From IMG/VR virus record IMGVR_UViG_3300047483_000537, positions 32,600 through 96,599 of that record: DNA of 64,000 bases. One strand, given 5' to 3'. Origin of the DNA: a virus. The notes beneath the pieces were generated by a model, which worked only from the letters and a program-made list of their open reading frames with translations, ran no database searches and had not been told where the DNA came from. Shown one piece after another: positions 31,864 to 63,876 of the stretch (its first letter is position 1; every line of letters begins with the position of its first letter). Made by a program: the position numbers and the translations under genes.

Positions 31864-33000
31864 TTAAGCAGCGTTAGTAGTGTAGTAACGAACTTCAAGT
31901 TCGTTAGCAGAACCAATTTCAAACGCTCCGCTAGCAGAGCCTTGAGCTGTGAAGTTAATTGTTGTAGAAATAACTTGTTCAGTTGCAACAGTTGGAATTG
32001 TTAATACTGCAGCCGGCATTTCGAACTCAACACGAGTAGCATTTGCAGCACCACCAACTTCTAGTTGTACAGAGAATGCTGGGTCTACGTCTGTTGTGCT
32101 ACCTGCTAACATATCTGCTAACAAGCCAGCACTGTTAGTACTACCTGCACGTAAGTAGCAATTTAAGCTACCTGAAATAGCACGAGTACCTGTAAAGTAT
32201 GTGAATGGACGGTTAACAACACCTAGGTTAGCTGGTGTTAAGTAAGTTAGGTTGTTGGCAATTGTTAAGTTACCGCCTGTGATAGCTACGTTGTAAGTAG
32301 TACCTGTACCGTCGATCTCTTTCTTTAGGGTTAGAGTGCTCAACTTGTTGGCAATAAACGGAGCAGTAGTATTTTTACCTTTAGCAGTTCCAGTTAGTCC
32401 ACCACCAAATGTTACTGTTGCGCCTGTGGTAGCTGTTAGACCTGCGATTTGGCGCAAGATAGCACCTTTACCAGCCCAAGCAACCATAGCAATAGCATCT
32501 AGGCCAAAATCAACTGTTGCTGAATCAAGAGCACAGTTGTCGATAATGTAGCTAACGCCGTCAATAACAATGATTAGACCAAATTTTTGTAATTGGTGAC
32601 TGTTAGAATTACCAGCAACTAGAGTAGCGGCACTAGTACCTTCTGCCCAAGCTGCATTTGTACCACCAATAGGGTCTGTGGCAAACAGTGCGTTCCATAG
32701 TACTGATTCTTCACAAGTGATATTTACGCCACCGTCGGCAGGACGCATGTATGTGCTCATGGAGAAATCAACTGGTTCTAGTGCAGTATTAAAACTACGC
32801 TGACCACGAACAGGTGCTGCACCTGCTTCTGTTAGAGTAACTGTTTCAGCAGTTGTATTTTGACTAAAACTAAATCCATCCAGAACCTGGATTTCACGAG
32901 TATTAGTTGCATCGAAGCCTGAACCGGCTACTACACCTGTTTCCGCATTTACGTTAGTCGTGAAAAATACGCGACTATTACGAATTAAATTAAATGACAT
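31864..33000 (-). CDS. major tail tube protein
   Basis: NLIRNSRVF, EIQVLDGFSFSQ, FTGTRAISGSL resemble T5 pb6; position in the tail module. Confidence 0.85.
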   Translation of the reverse strand: MSFNLIRNSRVFFTTNVNAETGVVAGSGFDATNTREIQVLDGFSFSQNTTAETVTLTEAGAAPVRGQRSFNTALEPVDFSMSTYMRPADGGVNITCEESVLWNALFATDPIGGTNAAWAEGTSAATLVAGNSNSHQLQKFGLIIVIDGVSYIIDNCALDSATVDFGLDAIAMVAWAGKGAILRQIAGLTATTGATVTFGGGLTGTAKGKNTTAPFIANKLSTLTLKKEIDGTGTTYNVAITGGNLTIANNLTYLTPANLGVVNRPFTYFTGTRAISGSLNCYLRAGSTNSAGLLADMLAGSTTDVDPAFSVQLEVGGAANATRVEFEMPAAVLTIPTVATEQVISTTINFTAQGSASGAFEIGSANELEVRYYTTNAA

Positions 33001-59255: not shown

Positions 59256-60293
59256 ATGACATATTTTAATCAAAACATTCAGCGCATTGGCTTTGCTTGT
59301 AAAATTCAAACAGAGCATGACAAAGCACATCCCGACTTGAATACCAAGTCCACAACCATCAGCTATCTTGCTCGTCAGACCGAAGATAATGTGCGTGCTA
59401 AGCTGTGGGATTTGCTTAACCACAATTTAAGCACCTTTTATCGTCAGCTCAAGTATGTAGCTAATCTGCCAGCACATCAGCGTATGTTTCGCATTACTTC
59501 GGACTTACTGCCAGCATATACTCATGAAGATTATATGCCGTTTTACTTTCAAAGCGACGTAGTTGCCAAGATTGAATACTACCTATCAATGTGCGGCGAG
59601 TTTGCACGTGCCAACGATATTCGTCTTAGCTTCCACCCAGGCCAATTTTGCGTGCTTGCGTCAGAGAATCCTGGTGTTGTAGAGAATTCGATCACAGAGT
59701 TCGAGTATCACTGCGATCTTATTCGTTATATGGGTTACGGCAAGCAGTTTCAAGACTTCAAGTGCAATGTGCACGTTGGCGGCAAACTAGGTCCCGCAGG
59801 TATCAAAGCTGCTATGCGTCGTTTGTCTCCCGAAGCACGCAACTGTTTAACAATCGAAAATGCCGAGTTTACTTGGGGTCTTGATGCTAGCCTTGAGCTG
59901 GTCGACACCTGTGCACTTGTCTTAGACATTCACCACCACTGGATTAACTCAGGAGAATACATTGAACCTACTGATGAACGTTTTAAGCGTGTTTGCGACA
60001 GCTGGCGCGGTGTGCGTCCTGTTATACATTATAGCGTCAGCCGTGAAGACTGCTTGGTTGAACACGACCCAACTACTAGACCAGATCTCAAGCAACTAAA
60101 GTCCATGGGTTTTACCAGTGCTAAGCTTCGTGCTCACAGCGACTACTACTGGAATCAAGCAGTAAATAACTGGGCCTTGACATTTAGTCCCGTTGCCGAT
60201 ATAATGTGTGAATCAAAACAAAAAAACTTGGCAAGCACACCACTTGCAAAGCAATGCCTTATTCAAACAGTTACCTTAATTCAAACAAAATGA
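59256..60293 (+). CDS. uvsE: UV-damage endonuclease
   Basis: IGFAC, FRITSDLLP, RLSFHPGQF, NVHVG, IENAE, LDIHHH, AHSD, DIMCESK. Confidence 0.92.
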   Translation: MTYFNQNIQRIGFACKIQTEHDKAHPDLNTKSTTISYLARQTEDNVRAKLWDLLNHNLSTFYRQLKYVANLPAHQRMFRITSDLLPAYTHEDYMPFYFQSDVVAKIEYYLSMCGEFARANDIRLSFHPGQFCVLASENPGVVENSITEFEYHCDLIRYMGYGKQFQDFKCNVHVGGKLGPAGIKAAMRRLSPEARNCLTIENAEFTWGLDASLELVDTCALVLDIHHHWINSGEYIEPTDERFKRVCDSWRGVRPVIHYSVSREDCLVEHDPTTRPDLKQLKSMGFTSAKLRAHSDYYWNQAVNNWALTFSPVADIMCESKQKNLASTPLAKQCLIQTVTLIQTK

Positions 60294-61091: not shown

Positions 61092-61420
61092 GTAGTTACA
61101 CACCAGACGTTTGGGTCGTCTTAGAATTTGACGCACCGCAACTTGAAAAACCAATGCGTAAAGTCTTTGCGGGCTGGTACGGTGGTTACACCGGAAGCAA
61201 TAGTTGGAAACTTAATTCGGGCATTACTGAAGTACGCATTGACGACCAAGGCCACTATGAGTTTGATGGCTATAGTGGTAGTACTTACTACTGCCACTTC
61301 AATAACTACCATATGAGCAGCTTAATGCAAGGAGTTCTAGCCAATTGGTTAAAAGAAGCCGATCTGCGCGGCGATACAACAATCAGAATTTTGAGTATTG
61401 ACGAGATTGTTAAAACTTGA
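61088..61420 (+). CDS. phage hypothetical protein
   Basis: YTPD.WVV...KVFAGWYGGY.GS.SWKLNSGI...GYSGSTY.C. Confidence 0.75.
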   Translation: MSSYTPDVWVVLEFDAPQLEKPMRKVFAGWYGGYTGSNSWKLNSGITEVRIDDQGHYEFDGYSGSTYYCHFNNYHMSSLMQGVLANWLKEADLRGDTTIRILSIDEIVKT

Positions 61421-61447
61421 TATAATATAGGCTGATTTGGAGATATT

Positions 61448-61648
61448 ATGGCAGGCTATTCACGCGACTTTTTAATTGACGCTTTTATGTCACGATACAT
61501 TTGTTGCACTCTTATTACTATAGAGCAACTTGTAAATCTTGAGCAAATGGCAAACGATCTTTATGATCGAGTTGGTCGCGATAGTTTCCGTACATATGCC
61601 AGCTTAGATGCTGAAGCACTCAGAGTCTATAAAAATAGTGTTGACTGA
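61448..61648 (+). CDS. hypothetical protein
   Basis: Same leader sequence as the 60879 gene. Confidence 0.65.
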   Translation: MAGYSRDFLIDAFMSRYICCTLITIEQLVNLEQMANDLYDRVGRDSFRTYASLDAEALRVYKNSVD

Positions 61649-61669
61649 TTGTGGTCTTTGTTGTATAAT
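61641..61669 (+). promoter_or_regulatory. promoter of the tRNA/ncRNA cluster
   Basis: TTGACT-N17-TATAAT. Confidence 0.8.
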
Positions 61670-61923: not shown

Positions 61924-62091
61924 GGGTCGGTAGCTTAACTTGGTTAAAGCGCAAATCCGGACTACAAACCCTTCACCTAGTAGCCTCTCCTCTGCCGCAA
62001 GCACGAAGGTAACGGTGGGCTGAATTCGAATATACGCTTATGGGATTGTAGAATTTTAGAGAAGCAGGTTCAAGCCCTGCCTGACCCACCA
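61924..62091 (+). ncRNA. 168-nt tRNA-like RNA with a large insertion in place of the anticodon arm
   Basis: Acceptor GGGTCGG/CTGACCC-A-CCA, D arm GCTT/AAGC, T arm GCAGG-TTCAAGC-CCTGC; about 110 nt between D and T arms including stem CTACAAACCC/GGGATTGTAG. Confidence 0.75.
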
Positions 62092-62608: not shown

Positions 62609-62782
62609 ATGGAAATTAAAAGCGTATCTAAAACACTTGGCTTATATTATGGCCGTGTAAAAGAAACAGTCTATACTACAAAAATTGACGAAAACAACAA
62701 AGAGTTTGTTCAACAAGTAGTATATTTACGATCAGGCAAGCTAGAACCACTAAAAGGTTCTAGTGTAGATACAAAAGTATAA
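62609..62782 (+). CDS. hypothetical protein
   Basis: MEIKSVSK...KGSSVDTKV, 57 aa, between RNA modules. Confidence 0.5.
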   Translation: MEIKSVSKTLGLYYGRVKETVYTTKIDENNKEFVQQVVYLRSGKLEPLKGSSVDTKV

Positions 62783-62873: not shown

Positions 62874-62949
62874 GGGGTCTTAGCTCAGCTGGGAGAGCGG
62901 CTGCTTTGCAAGCAGTAGGTCAACGGTTCGAACCCGTTATTCTCCACCA
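62874..62949 (+). tRNA. tRNA-Ala(TGC)
   Basis: G3:U70 pair, GCTGC-TTTGCAA-GCAGT, CCA; acceptor pairs 5 and 6 are mismatched. Confidence 0.85.
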
Positions 62950-62964
62950 ATTTTAAATATTATT

Positions 62965-63087
62965 ATGAAAACACGAAAACCCAGGAACCACGTCCAACTA
63001 GCGCTGATGAAGCGTGGCGGCAGTGGTTCACATCAAAAAAGCCACAAGCAGCTTCGTGGCCAATGGAAGCGCAACCTGGACGTATAA
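62965..63087 (+). CDS. 40-aa basic peptide, possibly ArfA-like (not in the ORF track)
   Basis: MKTRKPRNHVQLALMKRGGSGSHQKSHKQLRGQWKRNLDV*; stop codon lies inside tRNA-Lys. Confidence 0.55.
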   Translation: MKTRKPRNHVQLALMKRGGSGSHQKSHKQLRGQWKRNLDV

Positions 63088-63152
63088 CTTAACGGCTAAA
63101 GTAGTGGGCTTTTAACCTACAAATCAGAGTTCGATTCTCTGTGCGTCTACCA
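63078..63152 (+). tRNA. tRNA-Lys(TTT)
   Basis: GGACGTA/TGCGTCT, GTGGG-CTTTTAA-CCTAC, CAGAG-TTCGATT-CTCTG, CCA. Confidence 0.88.
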
Positions 63153-63407: not shown

Positions 63408-63499
63408 GGCCCTATAGTTTAATGGTAAAACGGCGGATTTATATCCCGTAAGCAACAGATAATTGGTTCATCTGGGTTCGAATCCCGGTGGGGCTACCA
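63408..63499 (+). tRNA. tRNA-Ile(TAT) with long variable arm
   Basis: GGCCCTA/TGGGGCT, loop TTTATAT (anticodon TAT), 22-nt variable region, CTGGG-TTCGAAT-CCCGG, CCA. Confidence 0.75.
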
Positions 63500-63504
63500 A
63501 AAAT

Positions 63505-63876
63505 ATGAATACAAAACAAAAAGGCAACGCTGGTATAGGTGCCGCAATAGCATATTTTACTAGACAAGGTCACAATGTGCTAATACCTTTGACAGATAGT
63601 CAAGAGTATGACTTAGTGGTAGATATTGACGGCTTTTTAAATAAAGTACAGGTAAAATATACTGCACAAAAAGCACCTTCTGGTAGCTATCTAATAGCTT
63701 TAAGAAGTATTAGTGGTAGCAGTAGGCAAGAGTACAAAACGGTACAAAATACTGATATAGACTATCTTTTCTGCCTAACTGAGTTAGGTGATACATATCT
63801 AGTACCTATATTGGAACTAAATCATGCTTCAACAATGACAATTAATACTGCTTTTAAAGATAAGTATAAAGTATAA
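63505..63876 (+). CDS. free-standing PD-(D/E)XK homing-type endonuclease
   Basis: TKQKG..G...GHNVLIP...YDLVVD...KVQVK...IDY; resembles group I intron-associated PD-(D/E)XK nucleases; sits between tRNA genes. Confidence 0.75.
   Translation: MNTKQKGNAGIGAAIAYFTRQGHNVLIPLTDSQEYDLVVDIDGFLNKVQVKYTAQKAPSGSYLIALRSISGSSRQEYKTVQNTDIDYLFCLTELGDTYLVPILELNHASTMTINTAFKDKYKV

Follow-up and report, generated by a model that had tools for sequence, protein, structure and literature searches.

A phage gene for a small basic protein that ends inside tRNA-Lys: a candidate non-stop gene design in a new family shared with Betaproteobacteria

The last 64 kb of a 96.6-kb viral contig in IMG/VR (record IMGVR_UViG_3300047483_000537, positions 32,600 to 96,599; 64,000 nucleotides (nt), referred to here as the window) contain, within an array of transfer RNA (tRNA) genes, a 40-codon open reading frame (ORF) whose stop codon lies inside the adjoining tRNA-Lys gene. 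Comparison with its relatives indicates that the ORF is a real gene under protein-level selection, belonging to a new family of small basic proteins of Betaproteobacteria and their phages. Maturation of tRNA-Lys would sever the stop codon from the messenger RNA (mRNA), and many relatives have gene ends that would do the same by this or other means. We put at about 0.5 the probability that such non-stop expression is a selected design, linked to trans-translation and serving a ribosome-directed function; that the peptide is itself a ribosome-rescue factor is a more tentative proposal, to which we return below.

The ORF starts at ATG 62965 and stops at TAA 63085-63087 on the + strand, giving a product of 40 amino acids (aa). 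The observation behind the original prediction, that this ORF ends within a tRNA-Lys starting at 63078, holds up, since the ORF list, ARAGORN and Rfam agree on it. The tRNA scores 61.1 bits with the Rfam model (E 5e-12; gathering score 29) and has a cloverleaf with anticodon UUU and a CCA end, of which the stop codon forms positions 8-10 (UAA in the RNA). The tRNA begins within codon 38, downstream of codons 1-37, and takes in codons 39-40 together with the stop, an overlap of 10 nt. Cleavage by RNase P at 63077/63078, inside codon 38, would leave an mRNA that ends 2 nt past codon 37 and has no stop codon. RNase P is known to cut tRNA 5' ends and to separate mRNA-tRNA co-transcripts such as E. 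coli secG-leuU (PMC7049720). There, as proposed here, the mRNA 3' end is set by the cut at the 5' end of the downstream tRNA, but the secG stop codon lies upstream of the cut, whereas that of the phage ORF would be removed by it. Our literature searches found no case in bacteria or phages of a stop codon that serves in this manner from within a tRNA, no RNase P-made non-stop mRNA and no named Betaproteobacterial rescue factor.

A single stop codon inside a tRNA is not beyond chance, because short ORFs abound (47 of at least 20 aa in the surrounding 2.5 kb) and U8-A9-R10 supplies almost all tRNAs with a stop in one of the frames; the junction here is more than chance because the frame is under purifying selection and the junction is repeated in 27 other viral contigs. 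Across 17 distinct gapless copies, the ratio of nonsynonymous to synonymous polymorphism (pN/pS) is 0.22 in the ORF frame and 0.76 and 1.54 in the other two, and 12, 11 and 26 columns vary at the first, second and third codon positions, respectively. A word-indexed search recovered 19 protein homologues at 73-90% identity, mostly of exactly 40 aa, a scan of IMG/VR gave 40 loci at 49-95% identity, and frame, length and motifs are kept at 35-50% identity in phages and bacteria. Most homologues have a Shine-Dalgarno sequence (AAGGA or GGAG) 5-10 nt upstream of the start codon, and several are preceded by a private TATAAT promoter, which the window copy lacks. The alternative that there is no gene here, only a conserved RNA element or an ORF that arose by chance between tRNAs, could draw on the plentiful short ORFs of the array and the lack of any Pfam, NCBIfam or PHROG family match; it is scarcely credible, however, and we regard it as refuted by the selection specific to the ORF frame, by the motifs conserved across phages and bacteria, and by the wider family.

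When 1.8 billion cluster representatives were searched with a profile of that family, 77 clusters matched at E<=1e-3. Its members are very basic, ~30-100 aa long, and share a core in which K-P-R-N precedes a short hydrophobic helix, followed by R, G-x-G-x-H and K-x-x-K-x-x-R and then a basic tail. The window peptide matches this core throughout (KPRNHV, LAL, KR, GSGSH and K-S-H-K-Q-L-R-G), and N8, G21, H23 and R31 are invariant in a 71-sequence alignment that includes it. The AlphaFold2 (AF2) model (predicted local distance difference test score, pLDDT, 84) has helices at residues 9-17 and 27-39 joined by a Gly loop. Of 201 genomes sampled evenly from the GTDB order Burkholderiales, 34 have homologues, as do 47 viral contigs besides that of the window. 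A scan of species-representative genomes gave 33 loci on chromosomes, of which 31 are labelled Betaproteobacteria: members of the Oxalobacteraceae (among them Herminiimonas, Herbaspirillum and Janthinobacterium), and also Chitinimonas, Andreprevotia, Jeongeupia, uncultured 'Neisseria', Rhodocyclaceae and Uliginosibacterium; the two others are metagenome-assembled genomes (MAGs), one of Moraxellaceae and one labelled 'bacterium'. Given this distribution, the phage host is probably also a Betaproteobacterium. Family proteins are named hypothetical in public records. No model in Pfam, NCBIfam or PHROGs matches the peptide, none in Pfam or NCBIfam matches any of the 71 members, megablast, blastn and tblastn searches of a phage GenBank collection returned tRNA matches only, and the ESM Atlas returned only hypothetical proteins. 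DUF7230, the sole lead from the ESM Atlas, was rejected, as it had no match to the family loci in five genomes.

The position of the stop codon was counted over 48 phage contigs, the window included, and lies inside a tRNA in 30 of them, through three types of junction. In 28 contigs the stop occupies tRNA-Lys positions 8-10, among them L037, L038 and L040, whose peptides are only ~50% identical; in one (L079) a TGA occupies tRNA-Lys positions 1-3, and in another (L100) a TAA occupies positions 5-7 of tRNA-Ala. The remaining ORFs end 1 nt before tRNA-Lys (four contigs), 6 nt ahead of a tRNA-like RNA whose D-loop carries a 32-nt insert (six, L031-L036, which retain the old tRNA-Lys 5' stub as the peptide C-terminus), or 24 and 45 nt before a tRNA (two), or have no nearby tRNA (six). 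Thus the expectation that relatives would keep the stop inside a tRNA is borne out in 30/48 contigs and fails in 18/48; since only a minority of homologues end before the tRNA, the arrangement is common, not obligatory. Conservation of the peptide ends at codon 36, so that a product cut short at the RNase P site would hold every conserved residue. Since codon 38 reads N-U(-1)-G(+1), its residue is Leu or Met, and residues 39-40 track the tRNA acceptor stem. Some of these loci show further structures. The tRNA-like RNA that follows the peptide gene in L031-L036 (L031:3115-3212) is comparable to the odd tRNA-Ile(UAU) of the window, and has the anticodon loop GAU and an Rfam score of 39.9 bits; and at L029:3095-3160 the peptide TAG lies in the loop of a 6-bp hairpin that is followed by a perfect 14-bp stem ahead of tRNA-Ser, structures that could represent a further variant of the processing site.

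None of the chromosomal genes adjoins a tRNA, and many of them end in ways that would also cut off the stop codon. In 10 genomes (L042/L107, L043, L044/L108, L045, L046, L049, L054, L055/L112, L058/L114 and L111) the ORF contains an intrinsic terminator (a GC hairpin and, after it, a T-rich stretch with as many as seven T) located 6-99 nt ahead of the stop. At least five unrelated hairpin sequences are involved, and C-terminal motifs such as G-G-F-F and P-P-F-L are the terminators read as protein, similarity between homologues ending exactly there. Another three (L047, from Uliginosibacterium sp. H1, L048 and L050) have a perfect 13-20 bp hairpin enclosing the stop. Two gene neighbourhoods recur among the chromosomal members. 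All 18 Oxalobacteraceae copies (L051, L053, L057, L059-L071, L073 and L074), extended at the N-terminus, are immediately preceded by a presumed hslU (an AAA_2 ATPase of ~450 aa) in conserved synteny. In Chitinimonas, Andreprevotia, Jeongeupia and relatives the gene is linked to rtcB, which encodes an RNA 3'-phosphate ligase of RNA repair: it lies 14-68 nt downstream of rtcB in L055, L111 and L113, and near it in L052 and L072, with a remnant in L058. In L055 and L111 the rtcB-linked ORF also holds an internal terminator. PrfH likewise pairs with RtcB in operons for the repair of ribosomes and RNA, as the chromosomal members directly downstream of rtcB do here. PrfH is presented as a release-factor homologue (PMC12829566), and differs in that this family has no release-factor domain and is linked to rtcB only in part.

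These two kinds of gene end recall the known back-up factors whose genes give non-stop mRNA. For arfA, an RNase III hairpin or a terminator is documented (PMC8012679), and the stop-spanning hairpins of L047, L048 and L050 resemble the RNase III hairpin of E. coli arfA. The Bacillus subtilis gene brfA (yqkK) has an internal rho-independent terminator, and its product is SsrA-tagged and accumulates only without trans-translation (PMC6881298). Judged by this hallmark, a terminator before the stop inside the coding region, the 10 chromosomal members resemble brfA and the phage copy, which uses a tRNA, does not. BrfA is like this family also in its helical N-terminal part and positively charged C-terminal part, although the two have no sequence relation and occur in Bacillus and in Betaproteobacteria and their phages, respectively. 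ArfA shares with the family its small size, strong basicity, hydrophobic N-terminal segment, Gly/Ser-rich basic motif and basic tail, and Neisseria ArfA has a translated-terminator tail like that of the chromosomal members; control by trans-translation, a feature of ArfA, would by analogy be the expected result here. The differences are that the arfA stop is lost through an RNase III hairpin or internal terminator, whereas this family would lose its stop at the start of a tRNA, at a terminator within the ORF or through a long hairpin, the truncating enzyme in the phage being, on our proposal, RNase P; that the phage product would have ~37 aa, compared with 52-55 for mature ArfA; and that the KGKGS motif and PLFR segment of ArfA are absent. 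The family motif R-x-G-[AS]-G-x-H-x-K-x-x-K-x-x-R is like ArfA KGKGS plus basic tail in composition, but is a different motif.

The weak resemblance to ArfA that had been noticed by eye is one of composition and layout, not of descent, and the comparisons of profiles and structures say the same. The Pfam ArfA model (PF03889), which finds E. coli ArfA in control genomes, has no match at E<=10 in the peptide, in 20 and then 71 family members, or in the six-frame translation of the phage genome. Alignment by hhalign of the 71 sequences with 12 ArfA sequences (Neisseria, Eikenella and Pseudomonas-like, taken from model-found loci and a protein search) gave a probability of 0.2% over 7 aligned columns, and Foldseek found no match to the AF2 model in the PDB. 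A profile search of PDB chains, whose library should include the BrfA-ribosome entries, gave no rescue factor at E<=10. KGG-repeat relatives of ArfT have reportedly been proposed by Burroughs and Aravind; no Pfam KGG-repeat or ArfT-like family matches the 71 members at E<=10. ArfT of Francisella tularensis has 40 aa, as does the window peptide, and the likeness of its basic Gly-Ser motif KKGGSTNKK to KRGGSGSH is compositional only; it is reported not to be regulated through non-stop mRNA (PMC6299226).

The phage also encodes a permuted two-piece transfer-messenger RNA (tmRNA; locus L120), with a tag ANDQVYALAA that ends in ALAA. It lies outside the window, sharing both tRNA island and strand with the peptide gene. 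A permuted tmRNA is present in all five ~100-kb relatives and in one 163-kb phage whose homologue is distant; a jumbo phage that also has the gene is without one. SmpB, a release-factor domain and RtcB were sought in the phage and not found. On the host side, a survey of 1000 Betaproteobacteria found arfB in 709, arfA in 37 and rqcH in none, such that ~29% have no arfB, nearly all have no arfA and none has ribosome-associated quality control (RQC) (PMC11633108). Such gaps leave room for another back-up factor. ArfA is absent from all five family-carrying genomes tested, four of which are also without ArfB. Among the 201 Burkholderiales genomes, ArfA occurs in three, none of which has the family, and is too rare for a test of co-occurrence; ArfB is present in 14/34 family-positive and 100/167 family-negative genomes. 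A TROVE/Ro60-like domain (27.4 bits, above the cut-off; genome 6707-6964) is encoded in a 453-aa open frame of the tRNA/tmRNA island, which suggests a theme of RNA quality control.

From these elements the following sequence of events can be proposed. The array would be transcribed from an upstream promoter, for example that at 61641-61669, and processing of tRNA-Ala would set the 5' end of the peptide mRNA, freeing its short A/U-rich leader. The cut by RNase P at 63077/63078 would then yield the stop-less mRNA, on which ribosomes would run to the 3' end holding a 37-residue peptidyl-tRNA with all conserved residues. Host tmRNA or the permuted tmRNA of the phage would tag the product for degradation, and free peptide would accumulate only if trans-translation were saturated, or from precursors not yet processed. 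By analogy with ArfA and BrfA, the peptide would then most likely bind ribosomes with an empty mRNA channel and aid release or recycling. Because tRNA-Lys cannot fold while a ribosome occupies the last codons, translation and tRNA maturation should compete on each transcript. A candidate mRNA hairpin within the ORF (63040-63061) ends 16 nt before the predicted RNase P site and might protect the new mRNA 3' end. Codons 27-31 are nearly invariant at third positions in 20 sequences that include homologues of ~50% identity, but RNAalifold gives only a weak consensus for the ORF region (-6.3 kcal/mol) and no convincing covariation.

The same overlap could be read as a cis-acting device, in which the ORF is a leader whose Lys codons gauge the supply of Lys-tRNA and control the folding or RNase P processing of tRNA-Lys, the peptide itself being functionless. 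The ORF is Lys-rich (8/40 codons) and overlaps the acceptor stem of tRNA-Lys(UUU), a ribosome at its 3' end and the folded tRNA would exclude each other, as deduced from the 10-nt overlap, and synonymous sites are conserved near that end. We nonetheless consider this very improbable: it is residues other than Lys that are strongly conserved (N8, G21 and H23 are invariant), the low pN/pS speaks for the peptide, and there are homologues with no nearby tRNA and one that is fused to tRNA-Ala instead.

If non-stop expression is indeed a selected design, a rescue-type role is the most likely one, because ArfA and BrfA are the only characterised proteins with such a gene design. That the peptide is a bona fide alternative rescue factor, a further family after ArfA, ArfB, BrfA and ArfT, is an appreciable possibility by analogy with these, if still short of an even chance. 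Together with it, and to be held as tentatively, come the ideas that the factor is used by Betaproteobacteria lacking ArfA and ArfB and has been taken up by phages that carry tRNAs and tmRNA, and that its level would report the load of non-stop mRNA relative to the combined tmRNA capacity of host and phage. A ribosome binder regulated by trans-translation could have another job, either plugging the empty mRNA channel in the manner of hibernation factors or antagonizing host tmRNA-SmpB or host rescue factors. The non-stop gene design fits this equally well, as may the predicted shape of two helices joined by a Gly loop. SERBP1 is a ribosome hibernation factor, and the only match in the profile search of PDB chains was an identical 8-mer, KRGGSGSH, in a SERBP1 segment of a ribosome structure (8vvt chain w), at an E of 0.71 that is not significant and within chance. 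Copies in free-living bacteria speak against a purely anti-host role, and the two characterised small proteins with such a design are rescue factors; we hold this alternative to be improbable.

The strongest rival to a selected non-stop design, because of the neighbouring ORF, the wedged-in endonuclease gene and the third of phage copies with their own stop, is simple compaction. In this explanation the gene encodes an unremarkable small basic protein, for instance an accessory that binds nucleic acids or associates with ribosomes, within a maximally compacted array punctuated by tRNAs; U8-A9-R10 provides a free stop, translation is completed on precursors, and the non-stop fraction is waste without regulatory meaning. 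ORFs are packed against tRNAs in the punctuation model of mitochondrial genomes too, as in the phage array. The 57-codon ORF at 62609-62782 abuts tRNA-Leu, its TAA ending 1 nt before that tRNA in the window and in 11/11 relatives, and tight packing is therefore a general habit of the array; the PD-(D/E)XK endonuclease gene is likewise squeezed between tRNA-Ile and tRNA-Ser. What compaction leaves unexplained are the terminators and long hairpins in 13 genomes, far from tRNAs and of at least five unrelated hairpins, the three independent types of stop-in-tRNA junction within one family, and the association with phage tmRNA and rtcB. We judge it unlikely on the whole, yet it has to be taken seriously, as several findings weigh against a selected non-stop design. 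Besides the packing of the 57-codon ORF, they are that 18/48 phage contigs have their own stop outside a tRNA; that the gene has an ordinary end in L052, L072, L056, L110 and L115 and in all 18 Oxalobacteraceae copies; that a ribosome could complete translation on unprocessed precursors; and that the 15-nt A/U-rich leader of the window copy has no Shine-Dalgarno sequence, as had been noted from the start. To these must be added the absence of sequence or fold similarity to ArfA, BrfA or ArfT, the Foldseek result included, the co-occurrence of ArfB with the family in 14/34 genomes, and the weakness of the negative association between the two (Fisher p = 0.057, with kinship ignored). The proposal that tRNA processing creates a non-stop circuit thus gains from the 30/48 stops in tRNAs, from the chromosomal terminators and hairpins and from the phage tmRNA, and loses from the copies with their own stop.

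Bacteria depend on ribosome rescue, and according to reviews there are probably more small rescue factors, which are not findable by sequence similarity (PMC8012679). The signature used here is one of gene architecture, a stop codon cut off from the transcript, and it singles out one uncharacterised family. Mechanistically it takes three forms, in which the stop would be lost at the start of a tRNA, at a terminator within the ORF or through a long hairpin that spans it. Members occur in Betaproteobacteria, a group in which arfA is rare and arfB not universal, as well as in phages with their own tmRNA. The signature suggests a general search strategy, aimed at small conserved ORFs with a stop located past a terminator or within a tRNA. 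The protein family is new, and comparative evidence supports in part the proposal that its regulatory logic is the known one of arfA and brfA; the way in which the phage would make its non-stop mRNA is a new one. If true, this would be a new rescue-type factor and the first case of RNase P producing a regulatory non-stop mRNA, and would offer a view of translation quality control by large phages.

The phage is of the tailed, HK97 type, with genes for a large terminase, a portal and a protease/capsid fusion. The tRNA array occupies the + strand from 60.7 kb to the contig end, with seven tRNAs, several odd tRNA-like RNAs and three small ORFs (Table 1), and resumes at the other contig end to give 22 tRNAs in total. 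Three near-perfect promoter-like sites stand on the + strand ahead of the array, and that at 61641-61669, the nearest upstream of the ORF, is likely to be the start of a polycistronic tRNA/ORF transcript; a consensus scan found no promoter-like site between tRNA-Ala and the ORF. The 3' end of tRNA-Ala is 15 nt ahead of the start codon, and this tRNA sits 9-16 nt upstream of the ATG in many relatives. No family match was found for the 57-codon ORF, and the endonuclease may be a mobile or homing-type nuclease residing in the tRNA array.

Table 1. Features of the tRNA array around the peptide gene (window coordinates unless stated otherwise)
Feature	Position	Strand	Basis
Promoter-like sites, TTGACA-N17-TATAAT	60177-60205, 61398-61426, 61641-61669	+	12, 11 and 11 of 12 positions; pattern match only
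tRNA-shaped RNA, 165 nt, large insertion	61924-62088	+	Rfam tRNA model end to end, 35.6 bits
57-codon ORF between tRNA-Pro and tRNA-Leu	62609-62782	+	49-60% identity in 11 related loci
tRNA-Ala(UGC)	62874-62949	+	ARAGORN; Rfam 56.9 bits
Leader, A/U-rich, 15 nt, without Shine-Dalgarno	62950-62964	+	Sequence
40-codon gene, small basic protein	62965-63087	+	ORF list, homologues, pN/pS
Candidate mRNA hairpin within ORF, 8-bp, bulged	63040-63061	+	Pattern scan, given as opposite-strand stem
Predicted RNase P site, U-1 / G+1	63077-63078	+	Deduced from tRNA 5' end
tRNA-Lys(UUU), CCA encoded	63078-63152	+	ARAGORN (ttt); Rfam RF00005
tRNA-Ile(UAU), 92 nt, long extra arm, unusual for an Ile tRNA	63408-63499	+	
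PD-(D/E)XK endonuclease between tRNA-Ile and tRNA-Ser	63505-63876	+	Pfam PDDEXK_5, E 3e-22
Permuted two-piece tmRNA (L120)	genome 9489-9754, outside window		Rfam RF04321, 115.6 bits; ARAGORN

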